Translations under genes and position numbers: made by a program
Assembly (NCBI RefSeq): GCF_030013205.1
Contig: NZ_CP122648.1
Direction: 5' to 3' (one strand)
Source: Escherichia coli
GTDB taxonomy: Bacteria; Pseudomonadota; Gammaproteobacteria; Enterobacterales; Enterobacteriaceae
Length of the DNA: 64,000 nt
Shown here: in pieces, positions 2,405 to 64,000 of the stretch
How positions within the stretch are numbered: position 1 is the stretch's first letter
Layout of the letters: every line of letters begins with the position of its first letter
Notes under the pieces: model-generated
The model's input: the letters and a program-made list of their open reading frames with translations, nothing else
What the model was told of the DNA's origin: nothing
Databases searched by the model: none

Positions 2405-3355
2405 TCAGCCTGCGATAGCACCAACAACCTGTAATACTTCGTCACGCGCTTGTTCTGGTTTTTCACTGTCAAGCCAGTGAACCCCTTCCCAACCACGCAG
2501 CCAGGTTATCTGCCGCTTCGCCAACTGTCTCGTGGCGCAAACACCTCGATAAACCATTTCATCGTATGAGATTTCGCCTTCAAGGTAAGACCACATCTGG
2601 CGATAACCCACGCAACGAATGGAAGGCAAGTCCGTATGCAAATCTCCTCGGGCAAAAAGCGCCCGGACTTCTGCTTCAAAACCTGAAGCCAACATCTGAT
2701 GAAAACGCTGCTCAATTCGTTGATGGAGCAGTTCACGGCTCGCCGGGGCGATGGCGAACTGATGCACCTGATACGGTAGAGCGTCTCCTGACGTTTGCGT
2801 CAGTTCCGTTAAAGTTTTACCCGAAATGAAAAAAACTTCCAGTGCCCGGGAAAGCCTTTGTGGATCATTTGGATGAATCCTTGCTGCCGCAACCGGATCG
2901 ATCTCCTGAAGTTGACGATGCAATGACTCCCAACCTTGCTCTGCCGCCTGTTGCTCAATTCTGGCCCGCACTTCCGGGTCTGCCGACGGTAGCGGCGACA
3001 ACCCTTCCAGCAATGCCTTGAAATACAACATCGTACCGCCCACTAACAGTGGGATCCGCCCCGCCGCGGTGATATCGGCCATTTCCGCCAGCGCATCGCG
3101 GCGAAAATCAGCAGCCGAGTAAGCCTGCGACGGATCGCGAATATCCAGCAATCGGTGCGGCGCGGCGAGTAACTCTTCAGCGTTCGGCTTCGCCGTCCCG
3201 ATATCCATCCCTTTGTAAATAAGGGCAGAATCAACGCTTATCAACTCTACTGGTAAAATTTTACGCAGCTCAATGGCTAACGCCGTTTTACCGGAGGCCG
3301 TCGGCCCCATCAAAAAAATCGCCTTAGGCAGGCTCGCCTTACTGATATCACTCAT
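2405..3355 (-). CDS. miaA: tRNA dimethylallyltransferase MiaA
   Basis: 316-aa ORF with P-loop GPTASGKT; overlaps 3' end of mutL by 8 nt as in the mutL-miaA-hfq operon. Confidence 0.95.
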
Positions 3356-5195
3356 CTTTCAGGGCTTTTATCGCCGGATGTAAATCAACAGATTGTAACA
3401 GACCACCCGGCGGCGTTTTCACAAGTTGCGGACATAACCGTTCCACGTCCGCTAGCAGGGTTATGGCCTGTGCCATTGACCACTGCGCATGTTCGCTCAT
3501 CAGATTTCGTGCAATCCACTGCGCAATATTGCCAGGTTCGAATACGGACTGCTTCGCCAGGTAGCCTATCAGTTCAGGAATCAAGATTTGTAAATTTTGT
3601 TGGCGTAAGGGTAAAGGCACGGCCCTGATGGTCACATGCTGTGCATCTGACTGGAAATCAATACCCAATTCCGCCAGGGCAGACTGCGCTTTTTCTAATG
3701 CCGATTTTTCTTCGCCAGAAACTTTTAGCCGCAACGGAATAAGCAACGGCTGGGCGCAAACTGGCGCTTCACCCGGCGTCAGTTGCGCCTGACGCAGCCA
3801 ACGTTCTGCCACTGGCAAGGCTAAAAGTGAAATGTTGCCGTCGCGCTCCAGCAACGCACAGTCGGAATGAACGATAGTCAGTACCCGACCAAAACTCTGA
3901 CTGTTCGCCGCAAGTGCAGGTTCCTGCGGTTCTGGCGCTTTTGGTTTTTGCATCGGCGCGGGCGTTTGCAAAAGCTGGCGATACACTTCACCTTGCTGTT
4001 TCTGGTAACCTGGCTGCGCATTCGGCCAGGGGGCAGCCGGACGACTGCCTGAGGCGGGCGCAGGAGTGTAACGCGGAGCTACTGGCTCACGAAATGCCGG
4101 TTCAGCAAAATGATTGCGCCCCGCCGCCACGCGGTTTTCCGGGATGGCGCGCGGTGCAGGTTGTGGTTCATCGTCCAGCGGTAGCGGCGTTTCCAGTTGC
4201 TGTTGTAGCACGCTCAGCACGCCCTGATAGATAAAATCATGCACCAGACGCGACTGATGGAAACGCACTTCGTGTTTGGCAGGGTGCACGTTGACGTCCA
4301 CCTGATGTGGGTCGATCTCCAGATACAGCACAAATGCCGGTTGCTGATCGGCCCCCAGTTTGTCTTCACAGGCCTGGCGGATCGCGTGATTGATCAGGCG
4401 ATCGCGCATCATGCGACCATTCACATAGCAATACTGAATTTCCGCCAGTGCGGGCGTGGTGTGATTCGGATCTGCCACCCAGCCGCGCAGCGTAAGATCG
4501 CCGTGTTGCCATTCAATCGCCAGCGCTTGTTCGAGAAAAGCGGTACCGCAAATCGCGCCTAAGCGCCGTTCTTTTTGCCCGCCTTCCGGCACTGCGCGGT
4601 ACTGACGCACAATTTTACCGTTATGCGACAGGTTGATCGTGACGTCGAAACGCGCCAGCGCAATGCGGCGGATGATCTCATCAATGTGGTTAAATTCGGT
4701 TTTCTCGGTGCGCAGGAATTTGCGCCGCGCCGGGGTGTTGTAGAACAGATCCAGCACCTCCAGCGTCGTTCCCACAGGATGCGCCGCCGGTTTTACCGTC
4801 ACGTCCATATCGCGCCCTTCGGCATAGGCCTGCCAGGCTTCCTGCTGTTCTGCGGTACGTGAAGTGAGCGTCAGGCGGGAAACCGAACTGATACTCGCCA
4901 GAGCCTCACCGCGAAAGCCCAGGCTGATAATGGCTTCGAGATCGTCCAGAGAGGCGATTTTACTGGTGGCATGACGAGCCAGCGCCAGCGCCAGCTCATC
5001 TTTTTTGATACCGCAGCCGTTATCACGAATGCGGATAAGTTTCGCCCCACCGCGTTCGATATCAATATCGATACGCGTCGCACCTGCATCGAGGCTGTTT
5101 TCCACCAGTTCTTTGACTACCGACGCAGGTCGCTCGACCACCTCACCTGCGGCAATCTGGTTCGCCAGTTGTGGCGGTAAGACCTGAATTGGCAT
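3348..5195 (-). CDS. mutL: DNA mismatch repair protein MutL
   Basis: 615 aa from second Met ([38 protein letters not shown]), GHKL ATPase motifs. Confidence 0.95.
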
Positions 5196-42251: not shown

Positions 42252-42385
42252 GCGTCAATACGGCACTCCGTTAACGCTTACGTTTAAGTCATAAAGCCAT
42301 GCAGAACGCTCACCTCCCAAGATCTTGGTTTTTATAAGGTGTAATGATAATGTAAGCTAATGTTTCACATGCCAAAGGAAACACC

Positions 42386-43714
42386 ATGAGCCACAGGGAA
42401 TTGTTCAGCGAATTTCTTGAAAATTTGAATCTTGACCTCAAACAGGCAAAAAAGATCAGCTATCACTATCGAAAAATAACCAAGTCATTAAATCTTGCGT
42501 TCAGAGGAACGAGTTCCCGGGTAGCAAACCGCTTGAAAGTGGGGTCAGTAGGCAGACATACCGCAATAAAAGGCATATCCGATCTGGATATGCTTTATAT
42601 TATGCCCCCCAATCAGTATGAATATTATAACCGTAAGGATAATGGTCAGTCTGCATTGCTTACAGATGTCAGAAACATTCTGGCGGAAGAATATCCTGAC
42701 CAGACTGTGAAAAAGGACAGACTGGTTGTTCAGATCATCTTTAAAAACTTTTATGTCGAGGTTCAACCTGTATTCAGACAGGATGATGACAGCTTTAAAT
42801 TCCCTGAAAGCTATAATGGAGGAGCATGGCGCATTACAAAACCTCTTCACGAAAAGGCGGCCATGACCGCATTTTCGCGAGATAAATCCAATAATCTGCG
42901 CAAGCTGTGTAAAATGATCAGAGCCTGGAAGAACCTGCATGGCGTCAATATGGGTGGCTTACTGATAGACACACTAGCGTATCGCTTTCTTTCATCAACA
43001 TCAGATTATGACAATACCGGAAATGGCAGCCTGGGAGCCCTCGCCAGAGACTTTTTTGAATATCTGTCAAATGAGGAGAGAAAGGAAAGGTATCTCGCGT
43101 TAGGCAGTAATCAGCATGTACGTGTTAAATCTCCCTGGTTTGGCCGGGCAGCGAAACACGCGTATGAATTATGTTGTGATGCCTTAGACGCTGAGGGGGC
43201 TGCCAGTGAAAATGACCGCTGGCGCAAAGTGTTCGGACGAGCCTTCCCCAGACGTAAAGTGGGTATTATGGAAGCCCGTCTTGGTCTGGAATCGCATGCG
43301 GCAGATGCTGTTCCCTGGACCGATACCGAAGAGTTTATAGAGGATAAATATCCGGTGGATATCAGGTACTCACTCAACCTTGACTGTACCGTAACCCAGG
43401 ATGGTTTCCCTCCCAGAAGCCTGAGGGAGATGCTTACCAGAAGATTCCGCCTCTCCGCTCGAAAATCTCTCCTTTTCCGGGCAGACTTGACAGAAATGGA
43501 GGCAGAGGAACCCTACACCGTTATGTGGAAGGTACTGAACGTGGGTGACGAAGCACGCAGAAGAAATATGATCCGGGGACAAATCGTTTCGGACGGCGGC
43601 TACTGTACGAAGAAAGAAACTACCGACTTCCGCGGAGATCACATGGTAGAATGCTATGTGATAAAAAATGAGGTTGTGGTTGCCCGGGCCCAGATTGAAG
43701 TTCCCATAAGCTGA
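42386..43714 (+). CDS. polymerase-beta-superfamily nucleotidyltransferase, SMODS/CD-NTase-like (candidate signalling nucleotide or oligonucleotide synthase)
   Basis: 442-aa ORF with SD AAAGGAA; NTase signature G-S-x10-D-L-D (GSVGRHTAIKGISDLD) near the N-terminus; stop overlaps the SD of the next gene. Confidence 0.6.
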   Translation: MSHRELFSEFLENLNLDLKQAKKISYHYRKITKSLNLAFRGTSSRVANRLKVGSVGRHTAIKGISDLDMLYIMPPNQYEYYNRKDNGQSALLTDVRNILAEEYPDQTVKKDRLVVQIIFKNFYVEVQPVFRQDDDSFKFPESYNGGAWRITKPLHEKAAMTAFSRDKSNNLRKLCKMIRAWKNLHGVNMGGLLIDTLAYRFLSSTSDYDNTGNGSLGALARDFFEYLSNEERKERYLALGSNQHVRVKSPWFGRAAKHAYELCCDALDAEGAASENDRWRKVFGRAFPRRKVGIMEARLGLESHAADAVPWTDTEEFIEDKYPVDIRYSLNLDCTVTQDGFPPRSLREMLTRRFRLSARKSLLFRADLTEMEAEEPYTVMWKVLNVGDEARRRNMIRGQIVSDGGYCTKKETTDFRGDHMVECYVIKNEVVVARAQIEVPIS

Positions 43715-43721
43715 GGTTTTT

Positions 43722-44297
43722 ATGACGCAATCAGAGATGCTGAAATTAATCGCCCGACATGGTTATAACGTTGGATTTGGCGCTAAGAAAAACTTTGCCA
43801 CCTATGATCTGATTTGTAAGGCATCCGGTTGGATTAGCTTTATTTCTCTTGCTGTCGGTGTGTTCGCCCTTTTTATTCCTGAGCTGGCCACAAACGTCAT
43901 TTCCGCGATATTAATTATATTTGGTGTTGCTACAATGTACATTCAGTTTTATGACTCGGAAAAGCAGAGTTATGAAAGTGCGGGGATTGAGCAGACCAAA
44001 ATTTTTAATGAACTTGAAGTCATCTACCGCAACGTAAAAAGCGATGCAAACTTTGACTATCAGCGTACACAACAATCCATCGACGCTATCATGTCCCGGT
44101 TTTACGGCACGGTCATCAGCAAACAGATCTTCGGAAGTAACTGGTACGCACATTATAAATTTTACTGTGAATTTGAAAAAGCATGGGTTGAAGAAGAGCT
44201 GAACCTGACACTGAAGGACAAAATCCCGCTTTCGCTCTGCTTTCTCGCCGGTCTGGCGATCATTTTTACTATAGCTGTCATCTGGAAAACGCCCTGA
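43722..44297 (+). CDS. 2-TM membrane protein, SLATT-like candidate effector
   Basis: 191-aa ORF starting 8 nt after the NTase stop; two adjacent hydrophobic helices (ISFISLAVGVFALFIPELATNVISAILIIFGVATMYI) plus a C-terminal hydrophobic segment. Confidence 0.6.
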   Translation: MTQSEMLKLIARHGYNVGFGAKKNFATYDLICKASGWISFISLAVGVFALFIPELATNVISAILIIFGVATMYIQFYDSEKQSYESAGIEQTKIFNELEVIYRNVKSDANFDYQRTQQSIDAIMSRFYGTVISKQIFGSNWYAHYKFYCEFEKAWVEEELNLTLKDKIPLSLCFLAGLAIIFTIAVIWKTP

Positions 44298-44848
44298 TGC
44301 TGCAGCCAATGAAAAATTCAGCAAGCTGACTGTCAAATATGCGATGTATAGCCGGTATCACCATCCAGTGTACGTTCTATAAGGGGGGCGCTTGGAAAAC
44401 GGGTAGAGTCAAGATGTGGCGCGGTAATTTTACAGGTCAGGCATATCTGTTGCCGCCTCTTTCGATTGGCGGTGCCTTACTGTCCTGACCATAAATCCTG
44501 TTTCCACACCCCGCTCATCGAAGCGGACATGCGCTTCTAACACATCCGGCTCTCGGACAGAATCATGCCTTCGCCCACGGAAACCTCTGCGGGAGCTTCG
44601 GTGCATATTTTCATGGAAGGGGATCACCCAATAACTTCCATCGAGATCGGGTCATAACGGCCAATCCGTGATCGAATAGAGCGGAATACGCACTCTGACG
44701 AACTGCTTACATTTAAACTAATTACAAACTATATAAATCCGCCTTGCTCATTCACAGGGTAGATATATTCTTACTTTTAATTTTATGTGTAATTAACTGA
44801 TGACGAAAAATGAATTGAACTGTAAATGCATATCTAAGTTTTTCATTC

Positions 44849-45574
44849 TTATGATGTACATAATACCTTAAAATTATCAACTAGCTGAGCATTAACCTCC
44901 ATCTGACTAATCCCCCATAATGCGGCTAACTGTTTCTCTGCAATCCCACTATCCCATGGCATTAGTGGGTCATTACGAAACTTAGCAAATGGCCCATCTG
45001 TTTCTGTAAGAATGCGTGATTTGGGTATTTTCAAAACTAAGGCCTTACCCTTTATTGTATCGAGCATAGCAGGCCCCACTGAGAACCAGCATCCTAAATC
45101 AATTGCCCTTTCAAGCTGCTTAGGTGTTCCAGTGAACCAATGCAATATTGCCACCCCATCGATATTTTCAATCTCATCAAGCACCGCTGATGCACTTCCC
45201 CGACTATGGATAGTCATAATCTTGCCACCAGCCCGATTTACACTGTTGAGAATGTGTCGGAACACTTTCAATTGAATATCCCAATGTTCTTTAAATCCCT
45301 GTCCACCATCAAGCCCTATTTCCCCTACATACTTAGTTTCCGAAAGCAATGAATCAAACAGGTCTAACTCATGCGATCTTTGATGCGCGATTTGAGGATG
45401 TAGCCCAAGAGCAGTTCGGATTCGTTGACTTTCTTTAGCCAATAAAGAAGTACCATGCCATGCTTTAGGTGTTGTTGTCACCGACAGAATATAAGTCCCT
45501 CGACGTTTACTTTCTTCAGCCACGAGGTCTGGCCGAGGATATAAGTCTAGATGACAGTGCATATCGATGCTCAT
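44849..45574 (-). CDS. qatD: QatD-like TatD-family metal-dependent hydrolase
   Basis: 241-aa ORF beginning MSIDMHCHLDLYP (TatD HxH motif); ATGA overlap with upstream qatC. Confidence 0.8.
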   Translation of the reverse strand: MSIDMHCHLDLYPRPDLVAEESKRRGTYILSVTTTPKAWHGTSLLAKESQRIRTALGLHPQIAHQRSHELDLFDSLLSETKYVGEIGLDGGQGFKEHWDIQLKVFRHILNSVNRAGGKIMTIHSRGSASAVLDEIENIDGVAILHWFTGTPKQLERAIDLGCWFSVGPAMLDTIKGKALVLKIPKSRILTETDGPFAKFRNDPLMPWDSGIAEKQLAALWGISQMEVNAQLVDNFKVLCTS

Positions 45575-46890
45575 ACTATGTTCTCACTCAGTAAATAGCT
45601 TTCAACCTCATCCAGGCCATCCTTAAATACTTGCTTGAAATTATCAAATTCTGCCGTAGGCAAAGGGCCACTTTTGGCAATCCATGTACCTATTTTCAAA
45701 GTCGATTTCTGCGTGATCGCAATCCTAAGGGCGATCAGGTCGTCCCTGCGATCTATTTCATTCATTACTTTAGCTAAGGACTGGAAAATATATTCAACAT
45801 CTCTACTAATTCCCCCTGCATGAAGTGATGCTCGTCGAATGATACACGGTATACATACCCCACATTGCTGCCCCATTCGTTTCCAATGACTGCAGGATAC
45901 TGTACTTTCCACAATTTTAGATAAGAGCTGCTTATTTGAACATTCGGAGATCATTTTTCCTTTTGTCTTAAACTGATATGGATTGATTATTTGACAAGAA
46001 ATACCGAGCGCATCAAAGATCTTTTGTATGCTCGTAATAAAATGTGGATGTGTTGTTCGTGTGCTCAGCGAACCTATCCGCCGTGGAGTAAGTGGTGCAT
46101 TTAATGAGATAAATCCATTTTCAGGTACGAACAAATCAATCTTTTCTTGTTGAGATATCTCTTGTACGGCACAAGCACCTACGGCCGCAAAGGCAAGAAA
46201 ATTGAGGCTACGAGTTCGCATCGTAATATCAGTCACGCCTTGATAAATGTGTGGGTCAGCATTAATCTCAAAGCGCGAAAATTGGCCACTTAATTTTTCA
46301 GCAATCTGATCTTGACGAGACTTATCCCCCTTATAAGCATGACTAACCAAAAGTGGAGCGCGCCCTGCAGCCAGAAGATCTATTGCACCAATAGCTGAAT
46401 CCAGACCTCCTGAAAATAGGCTGACACAGTCAAGCCCTTTTAGCTTAATCAGACGATGCCTTGAATGCTGGCTATAAGGCTCTGGCGGTGCATAACCATC
46501 GTCACAAAATTCGAAATCCCAGATGTCTCCACTAAGAAAATGCAAAGCACTCTCAAGTTCTTTCTTTAGACTAATCCATCTGGATGGTTCATGAAGGGGG
46601 AGTCGTAACGACAATTGGCGGGTCCAACCATCCTCGGAACTTTCACGCTGAACGAAAGTATCTGCTGCAGTTACTGCTAATGCAACACTCAGAAAATCCA
46701 TGACCTTAGCTGGAAGCTGTACTCCCAAACGTCTGATCCGATCAATCGCAGGATTCCCGATAACAGATATATCTCCGCGCCTCTGACCACTTAATCCATA
46801 TAGCTGAACAGGTAACACTTTCTCACTTGCTGGCGGCAAATGGTGATGTTTATGATGGAAAACTAATTGTGTCACTGGTATGCCTCCCAT
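45571..46890 (-). CDS. qatC: QatC-like QueC-family PP-loop ATPase
   Basis: 439-aa ORF with PP-loop SGGLDS (DCVSLFSGGLDSAIGAIDLL); overlaps qatB by 19 nt. Confidence 0.8.
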   Translation of the reverse strand: MGGIPVTQLVFHHKHHHLPPASEKVLPVQLYGLSGQRRGDISVIGNPAIDRIRRLGVQLPAKVMDFLSVALAVTAADTFVQRESSEDGWTRQLSLRLPLHEPSRWISLKKELESALHFLSGDIWDFEFCDDGYAPPEPYSQHSRHRLIKLKGLDCVSLFSGGLDSAIGAIDLLAAGRAPLLVSHAYKGDKSRQDQIAEKLSGQFSRFEINADPHIYQGVTDITMRTRSLNFLAFAAVGACAVQEISQQEKIDLFVPENGFISLNAPLTPRRIGSLSTRTTHPHFITSIQKIFDALGISCQIINPYQFKTKGKMISECSNKQLLSKIVESTVSCSHWKRMGQQCGVCIPCIIRRASLHAGGISRDVEYIFQSLAKVMNEIDRRDDLIALRIAITQKSTLKIGTWIAKSGPLPTAEFDNFKQVFKDGLDEVESYLLSENIV

Positions 46891-47624
46891 TCTTGCCAGG
46901 CCTCAATAATGGCCTGACGTTCAATTTTTACCATTTGGTTTCGTGTGAACGATCTTATGTTACCGGCAAGTTTTGGTGCCATATGTTTATCAACAACAAC
47001 TTTAATCAATTCCCGGAGTTCAATTTCTGCATGAATTGCCTTTGAAGGTGTATCTGCTTTGTTCCATGCCCTATTAGAATCCATTACCATCTGAAGGAAA
47101 ATACTTTCCGCTAGATAACCAATCATTGTGTCAACAATCACACCATCAGTTATTTTTTGAGGATCGAAAATTTCTACGCCATCAAGAGCCTCCACTAAAG
47201 CATGGTTCATGGCCGCACAGATCTTTTCTGAGTCACCATCCTGTGATGTTAAAGCTTGAGCAATAGTTGATATTGCTATTTCGCATGGAAGGCCTGCCAA
47301 ACTGCCCAAATCGATGCTTGGTTCTCCGGGAGCCGAAGGCATTCCCACTAAAGCCCCAAATAATTCGGCCCCAGCTTGCGTGACACTCCCTAATCGCCGA
47401 GCAGCGTTACTGCTCCCTCCGGAGGCTTTTCGCGCGTAGTGCCCTATGGCTTTTCTGAAATCTGCTCGATTTCCATTTGATACCGCATTTCCCAACGATT
47501 CTCGAAATGGCGCAAACCTCCTTTCTTGCGGCGAGGGTAACGGTTGCTGTGGCTGATCATCAGCCCATGGTGGAACCAGCGGAGAGCCACCTCCTGGACC
47601 TTTACTTGATTGTGATGTTCCCAT
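46872..47624 (-). CDS. qatB: QatB-like protein (no recognisable domain)
   Basis: 250-aa ORF whose ATG overlaps the qatA stop (TAATG); position between KAP NTPase and QueC-like genes. Confidence 0.7.
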   Translation of the reverse strand: MGTSQSSKGPGGGSPLVPPWADDQPQQPLPSPQERRFAPFRESLGNAVSNGNRADFRKAIGHYARKASGGSSNAARRLGSVTQAGAELFGALVGMPSAPGEPSIDLGSLAGLPCEIAISTIAQALTSQDGDSEKICAAMNHALVEALDGVEIFDPQKITDGVIVDTMIGYLAESIFLQMVMDSNRAWNKADTPSKAIHAEIELRELIKVVVDKHMAPKLAGNIRSFTRNQMVKIERQAIIEAWQEWEAYQ

Positions 47625-49408
47625 TAAGCGTCCTTATTCCATTGTTCATCTTTTAATGCTGCAGTCATCCACGCTGGTCGTTTCATCCCCAACTGTAATT
47701 CCTGTAGATAACGAATTAATATGCTGGCTGCATCTGTTGAGTAGCGGGCCAACAGACATGCGCCGGAAAAGCCTCTGGGCTTACGATCCCAATCTGATAC
47801 CTGCCGTAACTGGTTAATTAAACCTTCCATTACAGGTATTTGCTCCTCACGAGGAAGTGCTTTCAAAAGGTTTTCTGCTGTAGGAGAACTAGTGTTTTTC
47901 AATTCAATTAGTGCATTTAGTACTTCCCGTCCAGATGGCGATAAACCAACCACATATGCACCTATTGGCATAGTTTCTCGGGACAGATATATGGCGGCCC
48001 TTAAGTCAATCCCACCAAGACGAGGTTCAAGTTGGGCCCATTGACTGATGAAAGATTTAGTCGTTGGACTATCAGTCCATGTCTTTGGTGCATCAGTAGG
48101 TATTTGACCGCCATTATCGTCAAGCTGTTTAAGTATCTGGGGAACACCTTGTTCAATATCCACGAGATGATATAAATCAGCGGTGCCATCCACTCCAACA
48201 CAGCGTTCAAAAATTACTAGCTTAGTAATAATTGCTTCATCCAAAGGCATTGCTCGTCGCTTCGCAATTTGAGATCGCATTTTCACAACATTCAACAAGC
48301 GTTTAACGATCCTGGGATTACCATGAATAATTGGAGAGTTGGCTAAAATGGGAGCAATACGGTCAGCACGCGCAAACGCCAGCGCGAGGTTGCTATCATC
48401 CGCTTCACCAGTCATTTTTAAGGCCTCCTGACGTGAGATTGGTTCATCTTTCCAGGATTGCTGTAACGCCTTCTCTAAGCCCTCACGGAGCATAGTTATT
48501 TTTTCGCCTTCTAAGCCATGTTCAATGGCATAAAGCATGAACAGATACGAACGGATCTCACGGACCCCAGCCTTAGGCACCCGAATAGGAACCTGGATTA
48601 GCTTATCCAGATAATCTATTTGATGGCGCTGTGATGCCCCTTTGAAGTAATCAGCCACAGAAGAGCGAATCATGTCCTCATCTGCTGCAATAATAAAGGC
48701 TGTATTAGTCAAGAAAAGGAATAGCCTGATAGCTTCAAGTGTATGGATAGCATTGGCAGGGAGACAGCGGTCTAGGTTATCTATTACCACAATGAGTGGC
48801 TTTCCAAGTTCTTCTAGAATTTCCCCATATTCCTTACGAAAGGCATCAATCTGCTGAGGGGGGCTTTTTTTTGTTTGTGGTTTAATCAAACCACAAGCAG
48901 TTTCTTTACCTTCTTTAGCTATATTGCCTAAAGCCTCATACTCTTCCTGACTCTGGATGCCATCGGTGATATTTCTTAATGCACCAATCCCCCTAGAAAG
49001 CAAACCGCCAGTAGGTAATCCTGCCATTAAAGCTGTACCCTCAGCTAGTAATCCCATAGCTCTAAAACCATCAACTCGACTAAGGAGTCTCTTAGTTTTT
49101 GATATAAGGGTAGAATTACCTTCAGCAGCTTTTGTCAATTCTGTAGCGATGACTTCAAGAAGTGCGGCACGGGCGTCGTCGTACCCCTGATAGAGCCAAG
49201 AGTCAAAATTGATAACAATCCAATCTTTGTCGTCTTGCTCAAGTTTTTGCTCTATCAGTTTTAACAGAGAGGATTTACCTGCCCCCCAGTTTCCAAAAAT
49301 TCCGATAGATACTGGTAACATATCTTTCGTGGTAAGTACATCCACGGCTAACTGAGATACTTCACCAAAATTTAGGTAGTCTTCTGATGACTCTTTGTCT
49401 GACCACAT
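47624..49408 (-). CDS. qatA: QatA-like KAP-family P-loop NTPase
   Basis: 594-aa ORF with Walker A GNWGAGKSS near the N-terminus and Walker B-like VVIDNLDRC; SD AAGGA upstream of ATG at 49408. Confidence 0.8.
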   Translation of the reverse strand: MWSDKESSEDYLNFGEVSQLAVDVLTTKDMLPVSIGIFGNWGAGKSSLLKLIEQKLEQDDKDWIVINFDSWLYQGYDDARAALLEVIATELTKAAEGNSTLISKTKRLLSRVDGFRAMGLLAEGTALMAGLPTGGLLSRGIGALRNITDGIQSQEEYEALGNIAKEGKETACGLIKPQTKKSPPQQIDAFRKEYGEILEELGKPLIVVIDNLDRCLPANAIHTLEAIRLFLFLTNTAFIIAADEDMIRSSVADYFKGASQRHQIDYLDKLIQVPIRVPKAGVREIRSYLFMLYAIEHGLEGEKITMLREGLEKALQQSWKDEPISRQEALKMTGEADDSNLALAFARADRIAPILANSPIIHGNPRIVKRLLNVVKMRSQIAKRRAMPLDEAIITKLVIFERCVGVDGTADLYHLVDIEQGVPQILKQLDDNGGQIPTDAPKTWTDSPTTKSFISQWAQLEPRLGGIDLRAAIYLSRETMPIGAYVVGLSPSGREVLNALIELKNTSSPTAENLLKALPREEQIPVMEGLINQLRQVSDWDRKPRGFSGACLLARYSTDAASILIRYLQELQLGMKRPAWMTAALKDEQWNKDA

Positions 49409-57025: not shown

Positions 57026-57598
57026 ATGCAAAAACTTGAAAACCGGTGTGATCTGCTGCTCATCCAGCATCAGAAATGGATGGCAAGTGTAACCCGGTTT
57101 ATTGTCGCTCATGGAATGGGCTCTCCGCATCTTCATGGTTATCACCGCCTGACCCTGGCCCACTTTTTTCTGCCGGAAAAAGGCACCATTATCTCGGTGG
57201 CACCACAGGGACTCTATCAGGTCGTCAACCCGGGAACGCCACCGTTCCTTCCTGCCATTCAGGAAGGGTTAATGACCAGCATTCAGACGCATGAAATCAT
57301 GCTGCTTACACATTTTAACCTGGGTGGTGTTTTACTCAGTGAACTACATCGTCTGGGCGAAAGCCGGCTGGCAAACAGGCTGAACAGTCTGCTCCGGCGT
57401 TTTGACGATCGCGATCTCTACCACACCCTGATATGGCTGTGCTGGTATGATCTGATGTGCGCCCGCTCCATGCAGCCCTGGACTGAAGAGTTAAAGCATA
57501 AATCACACGCAGAACTTGAACGCTGGGCTGTGGCACGCAAACGGGAAAAGCGCGAGCTTGAACTGATGATTGACGAGTATCTGCTATACGCCTGTTGA
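57026..57598 (+). CDS. hypothetical protein
   Basis: 190-aa ORF with strong SD AAGGAG upstream of ATG. Confidence 0.6.
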   Translation: MQKLENRCDLLLIQHQKWMASVTRFIVAHGMGSPHLHGYHRLTLAHFFLPEKGTIISVAPQGLYQVVNPGTPPFLPAIQEGLMTSIQTHEIMLLTHFNLGGVLLSELHRLGESRLANRLNSLLRRFDDRDLYHTLIWLCWYDLMCARSMQPWTEELKHKSHAELERWAVARKREKRELELMIDEYLLYAC

Positions 57599-57712: not shown

Positions 57713-59287
57713 TTATGACCGAAAGAATTGCTCTTTCCATTCTCTCAGTTTCTGGCTGTGATAGCCCTGCTCGTAACACGCCTTCAACTCAGAGAACGTG
57801 ATATTGTTTACTCTGGAAAGCAGGACATAGGTTGTTTTACCTTCTCTCTCAAAGGAAAGCTTTAACTGAGACGCAAGAATGTTCAACAGTGCGTTCAGTT
57901 TTTTTCTGTTTCTGAAACGCCCCGGGCCACACTGGAGAATATAATTTTTCCTGACACGAGGCGGGCATTCTCCGCGGCACTCCTCAATGAGCCAGTCGAG
58001 CAGCTCCTGTGCGTCCTGCAGCTGCAGTTCAGATTCATCAGGTAACGCAAATAATTTTTTATATTCATCTGTGTACCACGAACTTATTACGACAGCAGAC
58101 GTCATGATATCGGCAGTAATTTTCCCTTCCCCCTGACTGAAATACTGCAATAATGCAGCAATTCTCGCAATGTTTTCTGTTTTTTTTGAAACATGTCCCC
58201 GAAACGCACTTAACGGACCGGAAGGAGATAAATCCTGCTCAAGAACATTATAGTGCTCAATAAATATTTTTTGCGCTTCAGGCGAAAAATGCAGACAATA
58301 CCGTTCATCCTTACTGGATTTTTCAATACTGGCTCTGGCCAGTTCCATTAATCGTTCATGAAATGCCGTTAACGATCCTCCCGGGGTCACAGCTCCGTTA
58401 ATAAAGCGTTTCCCCTGCGTGCTTGCAGGTTTACTGATAAGGCAACGGGCAAGAAAACCACTGTCTCTGGCAACAGCACCTTTTCGCTCCATATATCGGT
58501 CAAAAAGACCGGGTTGCACCATGAGGGATAACGTCATTCTGGCATTTTCAATCATCTGTTCGGGTTCATTCTTTCTGTCCACAGACAACACTGAGCCATC
58601 CCACATTTTGTTAATAAAAGGCAACTCAGACAGGGTATATCCATCAAATATAATACCAGCTTCATCTGACATAATACCAACTGAACGCCATTTACCACAA
58701 AGCTGATTCTTAATTGCCGCAGTCGTGGCATCATTAACAATGAATTTATACCTCACAGGTTCTTCCGCACTGTTTTTCTGAAGTACTTCCAGTTGTCTGA
58801 GGGTTTCTGACTCATCCGCGCCTTTGCGGAGTTCTTTATTCAGTTTTGACAACAATGCTTTTTTCTGAGCCTTTAAAAGCTCTTCCTTGTTTTTCCAGAC
58901 AGCCAGTTCACTTTTGTATCTGGAATATAACTGCATCTCCTGCTGGTACAGGGGCTTCATTAATAATTTGTCCACTGCGGTTTTTCGTTCTCCGGACTCG
59001 GCAAGCGTCAGGAAAAAAAGAGAAACCGGCCCCCGCAGTGTATTCAGTCTGCAGACATCAATCAGATTCTGGCAGACAAGTGAAACAGCGCCCAGTGCAG
59101 ATGCTGCCACAAGCCCAAGGGGAGCCTGCGTAATTTGCTGAGCTTCAATAACGGCATCACGAATGAGTGGAGGCAGCGAACTCAGGGGGAACTCATCACA
59201 AGGCTGACCGAATGACATAGTAACCTCACTACATACAGATATAAAAGCACTGCAATTTTGGCTATTAATAGCAAAAATAGCAGTCAA
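57713..59287 (-). CDS. YfjI-like protein of CP4-57-type prophages (DUF3987-like)
   Basis: 524-aa ORF; family assignment from recall, start codon uncertain (alternative Met 23 codons in). Confidence 0.55.
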   Translation of the reverse strand: MTAIFAINSQNCSAFISVCSEVTMSFGQPCDEFPLSSLPPLIRDAVIEAQQITQAPLGLVAASALGAVSLVCQNLIDVCRLNTLRGPVSLFFLTLAESGERKTAVDKLLMKPLYQQEMQLYSRYKSELAVWKNKEELLKAQKKALLSKLNKELRKGADESETLRQLEVLQKNSAEEPVRYKFIVNDATTAAIKNQLCGKWRSVGIMSDEAGIIFDGYTLSELPFINKMWDGSVLSVDRKNEPEQMIENARMTLSLMVQPGLFDRYMERKGAVARDSGFLARCLISKPASTQGKRFINGAVTPGGSLTAFHERLMELARASIEKSSKDERYCLHFSPEAQKIFIEHYNVLEQDLSPSGPLSAFRGHVSKKTENIARIAALLQYFSQGEGKITADIMTSAVVISSWYTDEYKKLFALPDESELQLQDAQELLDWLIEECRGECPPRVRKNYILQCGPGRFRNRKKLNALLNILASQLKLSFEREGKTTYVLLSRVNNITFSELKACYEQGYHSQKLREWKEQFFRS

Positions 59288-60402
59288 ATCAATATGAGGT
59301 AAAAATTTTTGTTGATTTAATGGTTAAATAATAACCACAGTGTGTTTTGCTGCTGAAGAAAGACAAAATGAATCTGTGTGTCCCCTCCTTCCCTTCGGAG
59401 CATATCTACTGTTCAAATTTTACACAATCACGTACAAACAAAAAGCATCATCCCGGGTATTGCAGATACCGGTTTCCTGCCGGGAAGAATCATAAACAGA
59501 AAACCCGGAATAACACCTTCAGAAAGCGACTTCCCTCCTGAAGAATAATAAAGAAGACGATAATTCCTGTCCTGAATTCGATATTTCATGGATATGACGC
59601 CATTTTTATAAATGACAAAAAAGCATTTAATGCTGACACATCAGGAAAAACAAAATAATACCCCCCTGCCGATACAGATAAAACACACCAATTTTCTTTG
59701 AATGCTCCCGCATAATTGTCAGACAGTGATAAAAATGGGTTATGACAATCTTTCTTCAACAAAAACCTGTCTTCTGTTTTTTTACATCAGCATCCTGCTT
59801 AAATTAAACGTAAACGAGCACAGCATTTCTGTACCAGAACTAAAAATCAGCTATTATTCAGCACCCTCAATCAATAAAATCTCAACAATATTATCCGGAA
59901 CAGCATGGTACCTCTATCAAAGGTTTTTAACAGGACAATTAACATTACTGAACAGCCTTCCTGCAGAACCACTGCAAATATAAAACCAGGGCGCAGGATA
60001 AATAATCACACCCTGAAAAATGCTGTCACACAAAAAAAAATTAATCACTGCACATAATCCGGAAGCGAAATACCAAACAACCCGGTATCAACAGGTATCA
60101 TTGCGTGCGCCACTCTTATAAAAAACACACAGCAGAAGTAAGATAATTATAAACGTAATTTTAATATCTCTCTGCCCCCCACAAAAAAACACTGAAAAAA
60201 AAATACTCACATCAGTAAACATGAGCACACCTGATAATCAGGCTGTCAGAGGAATGATATTTCCCTTTTACGGGATAGTCAGCCCGCCATTGAACAATGT
60301 TCAAATCGATTCAAAATAATTTCAGACAGATATTATCGTTGTGAGTCCCCCGCCACCTTTCCGGTACGCGGGATTTTGTCTTTTTTCACCGGGAATACAT
60401 GT

Positions 60403-61275
60403 ATGAATCCGTCTGATGCCATTGAGGCAATTGAAAAACCGCTCTCCTCCCTGCCTTATTCGCTTTCCCGTCACATCCTGGAACATCTGCGTAAACTCAC
60501 CAGCCACGAACCCATGATTGGCATTATGGGGAAAAGCGGGGCCGGTAAATCCTCACTCTGTAATGCGCTGTTTCAGGGGGAGGTCACCCCGGTCAGTGAT
60601 GTTCACGCCGGCACCCGGGAAGTGCGGCGCTTCCGTCTGAGTGGCCACGGTCACAGCATGATTATCACTGACCTGCCCGGGGTGGGCGAGAGCCGGGACA
60701 GGGATGCAGAGTATGAAGCCCTGTACCGTGACATTCTGCCTGAACTTGACCTGGTACTGTGGCTGATTAAAGCCGATGACCGTGCCCTGTCTGTGGATGA
60801 GTATTTCTGGCGACACATCCTGCACCGGGGACATCAGCGGGTACTGTTTGTGGTGACGCAGGCCGATAAAACGGAGCCCTGCCATGAATGGGATATGGCC
60901 GGTATTCAGCCTTCTCCCGCACAGGCACAGAACATTCGCGAAAAAACGGAGGCGGTATTCCGTCTGTTCCGGCCCGTACATCCGGTTGTGGCCGTATCGG
61001 CCCGCACCGGCTGGGAACTGGATACGCTGGTCAGCGCGCTCATGACAGCACTTCCCGACCATGCCGCCAGTCCCCTGATGACCCGCCTGCAGGACGAGCT
61101 GTGCACGGAATCTGTCCGGGGGCAGGCCCGTGAACAGTTTACCGGTGCGGTGGACCGGATATTTGACACGGCGGAGAGCGTCTGTGTTGCCTCTGTTGCA
61201 CGCACGGTTCTGCGTGCCGTCCGTGACACGGTGGTCTCTGTTGCCCGCGCGGTATGGAACTGGATTTTCTTCTGA
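60403..61275 (+). CDS. YeeP/YkfA/YfjP-family GTPase
   Basis: Start at MNPSDAIEAIEKPLSSLPYSLSRHILEHLR; P-loop GIMGKSGAGKSSLCNALF, DLPGVGE G3 motif; immediately upstream of antigen 43 as in CP4-44. Confidence 0.8.
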   Translation: MNPSDAIEAIEKPLSSLPYSLSRHILEHLRKLTSHEPMIGIMGKSGAGKSSLCNALFQGEVTPVSDVHAGTREVRRFRLSGHGHSMIITDLPGVGESRDRDAEYEALYRDILPELDLVLWLIKADDRALSVDEYFWRHILHRGHQRVLFVVTQADKTEPCHEWDMAGIQPSPAQAQNIREKTEAVFRLFRPVHPVVAVSARTGWELDTLVSALMTALPDHAASPLMTRLQDELCTESVRGQAREQFTGAVDRIFDTAESVCVASVARTVLRAVRDTVVSVARAVWNWIFF

Positions 61276-61393
61276 ACAGTCTGCCAGGGAAATGCCTGAT
61301 TACATTACGTTAACCAACTGAAAACATGACACAAACACCTCATACTCCTCCTGTTTCTCTTGCATGACTGCCTCGTCATTAATAGAATAAAAC

Positions 61394-61429
61394 GATCGAT
61401 AAAACAGGTATCGATCGCCATCATCGATC
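61394..61429 (+). promoter_or_regulatory. antigen 43 phase-variation switch (three GATC Dam sites in the OxyR-binding region)
   Basis: GATC at 61394, 61413 and 61426, each within CGATCG, about 220 bp upstream of the flu start codon. Confidence 0.75.
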
Positions 61430-61646
61430 GTTTATAGTGGTTAATGACCTGCGAAAAGGCAGTTGATTCTCTTCATCATGCAGAACGGAATTGCACACAA
61501 CGGACTGATGCTTCTCTGGCGGATGAGAGAGGGGAAGCATTTATGTCCGAGAAAAACCACTTTATCTGACCATGCTGTTTTGTACCTGCCGGTATCCACA
61601 TTTGTGGGTACCGGCTTTTTTATTCACCCTCTGTAAGGAAAAGCTG

Positions 61647-64000
61647 ATGAAACGACATCTGAACACCAGCTACAGGCTGGTATGGAATCACATTACGGGC
61701 ACCCTGGTGGTGGCTTCCGAACTGGCCCGCTCACGGGGGAAACGTACTGGCGTGGCGCTGGCGCTGTCTCTTGCCACCGCCACTTCAGTCCCGGCCCTGG
61801 CTGCTGACAGTGTTGTACAGGCAGGGGAAATCGTGAACGGCGGGACACTGGTAAATCATGACAACCAGATTGTCTTCGGTACGACCAACGGAATGACCAT
61901 CAGTACCGGGCTGGAGTATGGGCCGGATAACGAGGCCAATACCGGCGGGCAATGGGTACAGGATGGCGGCACAGCCAGTAATACCACCATCAGCAACGGC
62001 GGGCTCCAGTTTGTAGGTGCCGGGGGAAAGGCTACAGACACAATAATCAATGAAGGAGGCGGACAAAGTCTGAAGGGACTGGCACTGAACACCACGCTGA
62101 ATGGTGGCGAGCAGTGGATGCATGAAGGTGCGATAGCCACAGGAACCGTCATTAATGATAAGGGCTGGCAGGTCGTCAAACCCGGCGCAGTGGCAACAGA
62201 CACCGTTGTGAATACCGGCGCAGAAGGAGGACCGGATGCAGAAAATGGTGATACCGGGCAGTTTGTTCGCGGAAATGCCGTACGTACCACTATCAATAAA
62301 AATGGTCGTCAGATTGTGGTAGCCACCGGAGTGGCAAACACCACGGTGGTTTATGCCGGCGGCGACCAGACGGTACATGGCCACGCACTGGATACCACGC
62401 TGAATGGCGGTAACCAGTATGTGCACAACGGCGGTACAACGTCTGACACTGTTGTGAACAGTGACGGCTGGCAGATTATCAAGGAAGGTGGTCTGGCGGA
62501 TTTCACCACCGTTAACCAGAAAGGCAAACTGCAGGTGAACGCCGGTGGTACAGCCACGAATGTCACCCTGAAGCAGGGCGGCGCACTGGTCACCAGTACT
62601 GCTGCAACGGTTCTTGGCAGCAACCGTCTGGGGAATTTCACGGTGGAAAACGGTAAGGCTGACGGCGTTGTTCTGGAGTCCGGCGGTCGCCTGGATGTAC
62701 TGGAGGGCCATTCAGCGCAGAATACCCTGGTGGATGACGGCGGTACCCTGGCAGTGTCTGCCGGTGGTAAGGCAACAGATGTCACCATGACATCCGGTGG
62801 TGCCCTGATTGCAGACAGTGGTGCCACTGTTGAGGGGACCAATGCCAGCGGTAAGTTCAGTATTGATGGCATATCCGGTCAGGCCAGCGGCCTGCTGCTG
62901 GAAAATGGCGGCAGCTTTACGGTTAATGCCGGGGGACAGGCCGGTAACACCACTGTCGGATATCGTGGAACACTGACGCTGGCTGCCGGGGGAAGTCTGA
63001 GTGGCAGAACACAGCTCAGTAAAGGTGCCAGCATGGTACTGAATGGCGATGTGGTCAGTACCGGCGATATTGTTAACGCAGGGGAGATTCGCTTTGATAA
63101 TCAGACAACACCGGATGCCGCGCTGAGCCGTGCTGTTGCAAAAAGTAACTCCCCGGTAACGTTCCATAAACTGACCACCAGTAACCTCACCGGCCAGGGC
63201 GGCACCATCAATATGCGTGTCAGCCTTGATGGCAGTAATGCCTCAGACCAGCTGGTAATTAATGGTGGTCAGGCAACCGGCAAAACCTGGCTTGCGTTCA
63301 CAAATGTCGGAAACAGCAATCTCGGGGTGGCAACCTCCGGACAGGGTATCAGGGTTGTGGATGCACAGAATGGCGCCACCACAGAAGAAGGTGCGTTTGC
63401 CCTGAGTCGCCCGCTTCAGGCCGGCGCCTTTAACTACACCCTGAACCGTGACAGCGATGAAGACTGGTACCTGCGCAGTGAAAATACTTATCGTGCTGAA
63501 GTCCCCCTGTATGCCTCCATGCTGACACAGGCAATGGACTATGACCGGATTCTGGCAGGCTCCCGCAGCCATCAGACCGGTGTAAGCGGTGAAAATAACA
63601 GCGTCCGTCTCAGCATTCAGGGCGGTCATCTCGGGCACGATAACAACGGTGGTATTGCCCGTGGGGCCACGCCGGAAAGCAGCGGCAGCTATGGCTTCGT
63701 CCGTCTGGAGGGTGACCTGCTCAGAACAGAGGTTGCCGGTATGTCTCTGACGACAGGGGTGTATGGTGCTGCAGGCCATTCTTCCGTTGAAGTTAAGGAT
63801 GATGACGGCTCCCGCGCCGGCACGGTCCGGGATGATGCCGGCAGCCTGGGCGGATACCTGAATCTGGTACACACATCCTCCGGCCTGTGGGCTGACATTG
63901 TGGCACAGGGAACCCGCCACAGCATGAAAGCGTCATCGGACAATAACGACTTCCGCGCCCGGGGCTGGGGCTGGCTGGGCTCACTGGAAACCGGTCTGCC
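61647..64000 (+). CDS. flu: antigen 43 autotransporter adhesin (N-terminal 784 codons; continues beyond window)
   Basis: ATG at 61647 with SD AAGGAA; MKRHLNTSYRLVWNHITGTLVVASELARSRGKR extended signal peptide, repetitive beta-helical passenger (GG/TxT repeats), autochaperone region RAEVPLYASMLTQAMDYDR; no stop before window end. Confidence 0.92.
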   Translation, partial: MKRHLNTSYRLVWNHITGTLVVASELARSRGKRTGVALALSLATATSVPALAADSVVQAGEIVNGGTLVNHDNQIVFGTTNGMTISTGLEYGPDNEANTGGQWVQDGGTASNTTISNGGLQFVGAGGKATDTIINEGGGQSLKGLALNTTLNGGEQWMHEGAIATGTVINDKGWQVVKPGAVATDTVVNTGAEGGPDAENGDTGQFVRGNAVRTTINKNGRQIVVATGVANTTVVYAGGDQTVHGHALDTTLNGGNQYVHNGGTTSDTVVNSDGWQIIKEGGLADFTTVNQKGKLQVNAGGTATNVTLKQGGALVTSTAATVLGSNRLGNFTVENGKADGVVLESGGRLDVLEGHSAQNTLVDDGGTLAVSAGGKATDVTMTSGGALIADSGATVEGTNASGKFSIDGISGQASGLLLENGGSFTVNAGGQAGNTTVGYRGTLTLAAGGSLSGRTQLSKGASMVLNGDVVSTGDIVNAGEIRFDNQTTPDAALSRAVAKSNSPVTFHKLTTSNLTGQGGTINMRVSLDGSNASDQLVINGGQATGKTWLAFTNVGNSNLGVATSGQGIRVVDAQNGATTEEGAFALSRPLQAGAFNYTLNRDSDEDWYLRSENTYRAEVPLYASMLTQAMDYDRILAGSRSHQTGVSGENNSVRLSIQGGHLGHDNNGGIARGATPESSGSYGFVRLEGDLLRTEVAGMSLTTGVYGAAGHSSVEVKDDDGSRAGTVRDDAGSLGGYLNLVHTSSGLWADIVAQGTRHSMKASSDNNDFRARGWGWLGSLETGL

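Follow-up and report, generated by a model that had tools for sequence, protein, structure and literature searches.

What is held in the long AT-rich DNA between two divergent genes of an Escherichia coli genomic island, and is any part of it under constraint? The question is raised by a gap between a yfjI-family gene and a GTPase gene of the YeeP/YfjP/YkfA type, found in a stretch of 64,000 nucleotides (nt) from contig NZ_CP122648.1 (the window, meaning this whole stretch). An earlier note on the sequence had described the gap as non-coding DNA with long A-tracts and as a typical target of H-NS silencing. That observation is correct and its interpretation is half right; the sole clearly constrained element, a leader at 60306-60405 on the GTPase side, had been missed. 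The comparative analyses described here favour, with moderate confidence, a non-coding spacer whose right end carries a promoter-leader module, most likely a promoter-proximal attenuator.

At 100% identity, the window, with the gap and its flanks, matches the E. coli ETEC4079 chromosome. According to the Prokaryotic Genome Annotation Pipeline (PGAP), the gap spans 59219-60402 (1,184 nt), with the yfjI and GTPase genes diverging across it and nothing annotated inside. The limits given previously, 59288-60402, are right at the GTPase end and wrong at the other, where 59288 stems from an upstream in-frame TTG and the PGAP start gives 59219. Both neighbours and their strands had been named correctly. 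The YfjI protein matches Pfam PF13148 (DUF3987, E = 1.8e-96) and phrog_2373 (E = 2.3e-82) and, besides the phage 'DNA helicase' family, has a weaker match to a primase family; the GTPase protein carries an MMR_HSR1 domain (E = 9.6e-15).

The right-end module at 60306-60405 is widespread. The last ~95 nt of the gap have a match in 4,208 of 5,426 complete E. coli genomes (about three quarters), and the element accompanies the GTPase gene even where an insertion sequence (IS) element or a different gene lies to its left. In K-12 it is borne by yfjP and ykfA, the two intact paralogues. In a cross-genus scan with the GTPase protein against one genome per species (29 loci), the element was found immediately before the start codon in at least 12 other genera: Citrobacter, Hafnia, Yersinia, Photorhabdus, Serratia, Edaphovirga, Salmonella diarizonae, Enterobacter, Lelliottia, Cedecea, Pectobacterium, and Xenorhabdus, whose GTPase homologues share 42-62% protein identity. 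It is also present in metagenomes, after about half of the pattern matches had been discarded as chance occurrences inside unrelated genes (e.g., L124 and L067), and only three viral contigs were found with the box that opens the module.

This box, 31 nt long in the comparison across genera, is 75-88% identical to the E. coli version, versus 58-67% for the coding sequence and ~50%, the random level, further upstream. It holds two promoter-like hexamers (Table 1) and lies ~65-95 nt upstream of the GTPase start codon. The spacer between the hexamers, AATTTCAGA, is near-invariant across genera and as conserved as the hexamers themselves. No further copy of the box, or of a palindrome at the left end of the gap, was found in the island that would point to a regulon, only partial matches of 8-11 nt (e.g., 60162-60174 on the minus strand and 59232). 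In a genomic SELEX (systematic evolution of ligands by exponential enrichment) with the K-12 RpoD holoenzyme, the rnlB-yfjP and perR-ykfA spacers are listed as constitutive-promoter sites, and the promoter predicted at both is TTGAAA-15-TATCAT (PMC3946193). This sequence coincides with the box, within the low resolution of SELEX. From these comparisons we infer that the box is the promoter of the GTPase operon, possibly combined with a regulator site.

Downstream of the box, the predicted leader RNA folds into two nested helices: an outer helix (P1) and a GC hairpin (P2) followed by a U-run. In every case, 15-30 nt separate the end of the terminator-like hairpin and U-run from the GTPase start codon. 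For 23 of 24 orthologues a hairpin with an energy of -9 to -20 kcal/mol is predicted, and its sequence differs completely between lineages even as stem and U-run persist. For instance, the stem arms pair as CCCCCGCCACC/GGTGCGCGGGG, CCCCCGAAGCC/GGCTCGGGGG, GGCGAATCC/GGATTCGCC, or GTGGCGG/CCGCCAC depending on the lineage, and as GGCAGAACC/GGTTCTGCC in K-12 yfjP. The T columns of the U-run are invariant or nearly so in two alignments, with a weaker run in the Pectobacterium variants. In the predicted folds, P1 pairs the 9 nt after the box with UUCAC...GAG or GGAG beside the Shine-Dalgarno sequence. Manual comparison, independent of any model alignment, reveals linked changes in this helix (GUGAA:UUCAC to CUGAA:UUCAG, and CUCC:GGAG to CAUC:GAUG), and a hairpin-less variant has UCCUUG:CAAGGA. 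The stretch from the U-run to the start codon is too short to hold a promoter; therefore, by geometric necessity, any transcript of the GTPase gene (and probably of the antigen 43 gene, Ag43, behind it) crosses the hairpin.

With a covariance model (R1) made from 11 sequences, 42 instances were detected in the DNA searched, and all of them end at a GTPase homologue's start codon. In the R1 alignment 89.7% of cells are paired (86.6% for P1 and 93.4% for P2), versus 80.4% in shuffles, none of 500 of which reached the observed value, and 34-61% when the partners were slid. Pairs changed on both sides number 13 of 18 overall, and 6 of 9 in P2. Additionally, the mean duplex energy of P1 is -7.2 kcal/mol for cognate and -6.4 kcal/mol for non-cognate strands, a difference that supports P1 for the divergent classes only. 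RNAalifold on a plain MAFFT alignment was uninformative, with the hairpin arms misaligned. The folds contain the nested P1 and P2 only, and no antiterminator pairing, leader peptide, or ligand-binding domain was detected in them; the sole alternative partner of UGAA is the invariant UUCA of the box, without covariation. The leader has no Rfam family.

Table 1. Positions of the features discussed, in window coordinates.
Feature	Position	Strand	Basis or remark
Island genes left of gap, in order			integrase, IS fragments, defence genes, hha, AlpA-type helix-turn-helix (HTH) gene, 190-aa (amino acid) gene, yfjI (opposite strand)
190-aa protein gene	57026-57598	+	beside alpA; 27-37% identity across genera
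YfjI-family gene (DUF3987; PHROG 'DNA helicase')	57713-59218	-	PGAP on identical record NZ_CP122643.1; left boundary of gap
36-bp near-perfect palindrome ACTGCAATTTTGGCTATTAATAGCAAAAATAGCAGT	59249-59284	.	inverted repeat, 89% complementary
AT-rich, A+C-rich (plus strand) non-coding mosaic spacer	59285-60305	.	composition, no Pfam match, divergence
Conserved block folding on minus strand	59436-59552	-	hairpin and long closed stem, then UUUUUGUUU
A9 run	60032-60040	+
A7 run	60183-60189	+
A9 run	60195-60203	+
Shorter runs in gap	A6 at 59617 and 60120; C6 at 59661 and 60175; T7 at 59777; T6 at 60381
Conserved box	60309-60337	+	near-invariant in 23-42 orthologous sites across genera
Box hexamers	TTCAAA 60310-60315; TATTAT 60331-60336	+	15-nt spacer
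Second -10-like hexamer AATAAT	60315-60320	+	16 nt upstream of TATTAT, start to start
Box core AATAATTTCAGACAGATATTATC	60315-60337	+	23 nt
Leader RNA	60337-60396	+	folds of 24 orthologues; covariance model
P1 5' strand	60337-60345	+	9 nt after box, consensus CUCCGUGAA
GC hairpin P2	60347-60373	+
U-run UUUUGUCUUUUUU	60374-60386	+
P1 3' strand with Shine-Dalgarno-like GGGA	60385-60395	+	ATG at 60403
GTPase-family gene (YeeP/YfjP/YkfA type)	60403-61275	+	PGAP, NZ_CP122643.1; heads rightward unit
Island right arm, after gap			GTPase, Ag43/Cah, DUF932, antirestriction, RadC, YeeU/CbtA toxin-antitoxin pair

These features would most likely act together as follows. The box would serve as a sigma-70-like promoter of the GTPase unit, and most transcripts would end at the hairpin and U-run. 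Transcripts that read through would be poorly translated, with P1 masking the Shine-Dalgarno sequence. A factor would then relieve the attenuation, until which time the right arm of the island would be almost silent; the candidates are the AlpA-family HTH protein of the island, or a host factor. In the gap interior, slippage would lengthen and shorten the A-runs without an evident effect on regulation.

Several observations weigh against this mechanism. If TATTAT is the -10 hexamer, then transcription starts 7 nt later, inside the P1 5' strand, and the anti-Shine-Dalgarno part is missing from the RNA, which conflicts with the covariation of P1. AATAAT could be the -10 hexamer instead; TATTAT would then lie at about +5 to +10, as a putative sigma-dependent pause signal. 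A plain promoter also leaves the invariance of the inter-hexamer spacer unexplained. The pair counts come from an alignment fitted to the model, which favours structure. In the Hafnia-type and Pectobacterium variants, and likewise in the allele of the window, P1 is weak or missing altogether. A true orthologue, L065, combines the box and P1 with no terminator hairpin. The K-12 Term-seq supplementary tables (PMC7815308) attribute no 3' end to yfjP or ykfA. The short terminated RNA is then either absent or unstable in the conditions used, unless the promoter is silent; a silent promoter would make this result uninformative, and yfjP and ykfA are poorly expressed in the laboratory. Finally, homopolymer length differences between assemblies may be sequencing errors. 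The hairpin-less orthologue, at 4782-4844 of its locus on metagenome contig OJKJ01000274.1, precedes a GTPase homologue of 43% identity, and an 11-bp helix masks its Shine-Dalgarno sequence; a large toxin-like open reading frame (ORF) lies upstream.

The leader of the window itself departs from the common E. coli allele. Its lineage has CGTT in place of CTCC in the P1 5' strand (60339-60341) and G-to-A changes at 60366 and 60373 in the 3' arm of the hairpin. These four substitutions are predicted to weaken both leader helices: the window leader has a minimum free energy (MFE) of -13.1 kcal/mol with a z-score of +0.44, no better than shuffled sequence, versus -23.9 kcal/mol and -2.46 for the common allele. 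The CGTT variant also occurs in E. albertii, which likewise has A for G at the position of 60366 and keeps G at that of 60373. If the attenuator model is true, then the window strain should express the unit more strongly, and its four-substitution lineage offers a natural allele comparison.

Regarding the factor that might relieve attenuation, alpA occurs within 4 kb upstream of the module in 10-12 loci of other genera, with 65-82% identity, and the 190-aa gene is likewise near. The product of alpA (68 aa in this island, with a PF05930 HTH) is the best candidate for a box-binding factor because the gene is linked to the module and is better conserved than the GTPase gene across genera. The neighbouring 190-aa protein has no Pfam or PHROG family. 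Its AlphaFold model (mean predicted local distance difference test 74) comprises an N-terminal helix, a beta hairpin, and a C-terminal helical bundle, and the idea that it is a Q-like antiterminator was rejected after its PDB matches proved to be generic helical bundles, none of them Q-like or AlpA-like.

A bolder version of the attenuator reading is rather doubtful: the leader would control the whole right arm (GTPase, Ag43, antirestriction, RadC, and CbtA/CbeA), and the box would dock a factor, most plausibly AlpA, that activates transcription or makes RNA polymerase terminator-resistant. Precedents, in which an antiterminator loaded at the promoter overrides a nearby intrinsic terminator, are the lambda PR'-QBE-tR' module, served by Q, and the Pseudomonas aeruginosa PalpB-ABE-tB module, served by an AlpA. 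In the latter, 26 and 54 nt separate the start sites from the beginnings of the terminators, the AlpA-binding element (ABE) lies between -35 and -10, and the AlpA is a larger protein of eight helices (PMC7969949, PMC9371919). In its predicted anatomy, the leader shares with both a conserved sequence inside the -35/-10 spacer and a terminator a few tens of nt downstream and before the first gene; the prophage-like setting is also shared, and its second -10-like hexamer could be a sigma-dependent pause signal. However, the box is unrelated to the ABE (GGGACG), and the AlpA of the island has only 68 aa. The layout is thus somewhat like that of these modules, and membership among them is not supported. 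With leader attenuators and riboswitch platforms, the leader has in common a hairpin and U-run before the start codon and a helix involving the Shine-Dalgarno sequence; it differs in being only ~50-80 nt long, with no antiterminator, peptide, or ligand domain detected in it and no Rfam entry.

The remaining ~1 kb of the gap is different in character. Full-length relatives were found in at least 1,869 of the 5,426 genomes and fall into families of ~1184, ~1230, and ~1327 nt that are 72-80% identical overall. Most of the interior is 54-78% identical between families, versus 86-92% at third codon positions of the flanking genes, and it is mosaic, in that the near-identical family pairs switch abruptly along the gap. 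Better-conserved blocks lie at 59239-59388, 59439-59488 (92-100%), 60094-60143 (88-90%), and 60317-60402 (86-98%). Phage records gave no match to the interior, and the 'plasmid' matches were mislabelled E. coli chromosomes only. Two further observations concern GATC sites: the gap has no GATC in 1,184 nt, with ~3.7 expected, and other E. coli gap families carry to the left of the box a 74-nt insertion (L002 7054-7127; L004 ~4151-4224) with a GATC-containing inverted repeat, GAAGGAGATCA...TGATCTCCTTC, which the window allele lacks.

The compositional part of the earlier description was confirmed. The gap has 37.2% G+C (A 0.367, C 0.223, G 0.149, T 0.260), versus 50.2% across the window, and thus the low G+C over several hundred bp that is typical of H-NS targets, and it holds two A9 runs and one A7 run. 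The lowest G+C of the window is found elsewhere, at 49.4-50.9 kb (33%). The two A9 runs are the longest homopolymers of the window. In first-order Markov simulations of the region, the two runs of at least nine A compare with 0.24 expected (P ~0.02), and the three of at least seven with an unremarkable 1.4 expected (P ~0.17); the excess of A-runs is genuine yet modest. Separately, the plus strand of the gap is asymmetric (A>T and C>G), with an AT skew of up to +0.32 and a GC skew down to -0.26, which far exceeds any replication skew and would be similar to a Rho utilization (rut) site in a rightward transcript.

The lengths of these runs were compared among nine aligned copies of the gap (the window and eight close relatives), of which six are at least 99.3% identical. 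The run at 60032-60040 has 9 A in the window, 8, 8, 7, 8, 6, and 6 in the six copies, and 6 in a 97.9% identical copy. Similarly, the run at 60195-60203 has 9 or 8 among close relatives, and a C6 run has 6 or 5 among the copies of at least 99.3% identity. Apart from three point substitutions, these copies differ only in the lengths of the two A9 runs and of this C6 run. Among 24 records of at least 99% identity, the gap measures 1179-1184 nt, consistent with run-length changes. The long A-runs are a recent feature of the window lineage, because other island families carry AAAAGCA at 60032-60040 and A5 at 60195-60203. The runs are prone to slippage or to sequencing error. The earlier suspicion of slippage-prone tracts is supported, in that lengths vary among near-identical isolates and perfect conservation was not found. 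As in homopolymeric contingency loci, where slipped strands cause phase variation, the A9 lengths vary among near-clonal isolates; in contrast to such loci, the runs are neither part of a reading frame nor flanked by promoter hexamers, the closest case being 60032-60040, just upstream of the -35 of a weak minus-strand promoter candidate. Since the runs lie outside every ORF and every predicted -35/-10 spacer, no basis is seen for calling them an expression switch. The Ag43 gene is classically switched by Dam and OxyR, not by homopolymers.

These data bear on the reading closest to the earlier note, in which the whole 1.1 kb is an AT-rich 5' leader or H-NS silencing region and the A-runs are phase-variation switches for the flanking genes. 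Its attractions are that the gap is acquired DNA of 37% G+C in an island that encodes its own Hha, that run lengths vary among near-identical strains, and that the plus strand, A-rich and with C>G, resembles Rho loading sites, so that a rightward transcript would be prone to Rho termination. Nevertheless, this reading is unlikely. The promoter-like box lies only ~65-95 nt from the GTPase start codon, coincides with the K-12 SELEX promoter, and is kept where all upstream DNA differs (IS elements or other genes), which speaks against one long leader of the GTPase gene. The runs are lineage-specific (A4-A5 or interrupted elsewhere) and, as described above, are outside ORFs and predicted promoter spacers. 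Low G+C, A-runs, island context, and an island-borne hha gene are shared with H-NS/Hha-silenced intergenic DNA, from which the gap differs in showing no enrichment of the 10-bp high-affinity H-NS motif. A more limited role, with the interior as an H-NS/Hha-coated silencing platform, is plausible from its AT-richness.

A second alternative is that the box acts as RNA. It could be the single-stranded seed of a small RNA (sRNA), or of an RNA derived from the 3' untranslated region of an upstream ORF, that ends at the hairpin and U-run, and a second, leftward sRNA may come from 59436-59552. The minus strand of this block has an MFE of -41.3 kcal/mol and z-scores of -3.9 to -4.2, with none of 200 shuffles as stable, versus -1.2 to -1.5 for the plus strand. 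The fold overlaps the best-conserved interior block (59439-59488). However, the equivalent minus-strand segments of two other families reach only -1.7 and -2.0, and neither the inner pairs nor the predicted promoter is kept in other families. The block is at most a weak candidate for a leftward terminator, an insulator, or an sRNA 3' end. Hfq-dependent sRNAs are usually laid out in the way seen at the box, with a conserved sequence of ~23 nt ahead of a terminator hairpin and U tail; in other genera an ORF extends from upstream into the box, which must be transcribed there, and the covariation of P1 implies RNA directly after it. On the other hand, RpoD holoenzyme binds the K-12 spacers in SELEX, neither yfjP nor ykfA is assigned a 3' end in the Term-seq tables, a search for complementary targets gave none, and the window has the box only once. 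Nor did the sRNAs that the earlier note thought might be hidden in the gap find support in Rfam. A search of release 15 over 58500-62000 gave a single above-threshold match, IS102/IsrC at 61392-61628, outside the gap; within the gap only Ysr283 came up, at chance level (16 bits, with the threshold at 58). An sRNA reading is thus distinctly unlikely.

Could the gap be a decayed gene? In Hafnia, Serratia, Enterobacter, Lelliottia, Photorhabdus, Cedecea, Pectobacterium, and E. coli BL21, the box is preceded by an AT-rich same-strand ORF of 294-401 aa that ends inside it, and the E. coli gap, being similar in length and G+C, might be its remnant. This is quite improbable. A tblastn search with 14 upstream-ORF proteins gave a best E of 0.13, and a hidden Markov model of the family against six-frame translations of three gap alleles a best E of 0.33; C>G with very low G is also not a sense-strand composition. 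That the gap holds no convincing ORF, as stated earlier, is borne out: the longest has 93 aa, none of the 10 gap ORFs tested has a Pfam match, and the indels between island families in the alignment are mostly not multiples of three, breaking every frame. Only a 58-aa minus-strand ORF was found in the protein collection, as scattered 'hypothetical protein' calls from few E. coli genomes, and its frame is broken in other families. The upstream ORF of the other loci (L006 2094-3011; L011, L014, L017, L018, L020, L023, L025, L026, and L027, ~2700-3917) is very variable and has no Pfam family, with a weak RepB-RCR_reg-like C-terminus in one member; its stop codon lies inside the box (CAT TCC AAA TAA), and alpA and the 190-aa gene are divergent upstream of it.

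Least probable is a replication origin of the excised island served by the helicase-like YfjI, for which the phage 'DNA helicase' and weaker primase matches, the AT-rich DNA adjoining yfjI, and the A-runs and Fis-like AT motifs of the gap might be cited, as the gap has no iterons, tandem repeats, or repeated k-mers other than A-rich ones, its DnaA boxes and integration host factor sites are at or below chance, its interior is poorly conserved and mosaic, and K-12 CP4-57 has yfjI without the gap. The interior (~1 kb) is concluded to be a non-coding spacer with no detectable origin or function, and constraint on the gap is best explained as concentrated at both ends, in the right leader and a left palindrome.

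The palindrome ACTGCAATTTTGGCTATTAATAGCAAAAATAGCAGT lies 31-66 bp upstream of the yfjI start codon. It occurs once in the window, where no match is expected by chance, and every island family compared has the same right half (alignment columns 84-95). It is a candidate operator.

The description of the region as horizontally acquired is also accurate. The gap sits in an island of ~31 kb with its own hha gene, which adjoins a tRNA-Phe gene in the NCBI annotation of the ETEC4079 record and is an integrative element of the CP4-57/CP4-44 type. Defence-type genes occupy ~42300-49400 (NZ_CP122643.1 4577194-4584216) and encode a nucleotide-binding protein with a SLATT partner, QatC and QatD with two others, and a KAP-family NTPase; hha and two zinc-ribbon genes lie in the same region. 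The IS102/IsrC RNA is on the plus strand between the GTPase and Ag43 genes (Rfam, 68.2 bits against a threshold of 46). In K-12 CP4-44 the same RNA has the same gene neighbourhood, likewise between the GTPase and Ag43 genes; it is downstream of the GTPase gene, and its sequence is unrelated to the leader.

Overall, the gap interior is ordinary: AT-rich, acquired, non-coding DNA with unstable A-runs. The leader at 60306-60405 is a genuine cis-element that is widespread, belongs to a known general kind, and has apparently not been described before. It heads a unit with antigen 43 and, further on, the CbtA/CbeA toxin-antitoxin genes, and it probably gates the GTPase and antigen 43 genes. If AlpA docks at the box, then expression of the right arm would be coupled to induction or excision of the island, and the element would be an undescribed Enterobacterales-wide cis-element that reveals a new activity of PF05930 proteins. 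If the leader is an attenuator, then it would give a simple reason for the near-silence of these island genes in the laboratory, and its box, hairpin, and outer helix would provide a defined handle for finding the inducer.

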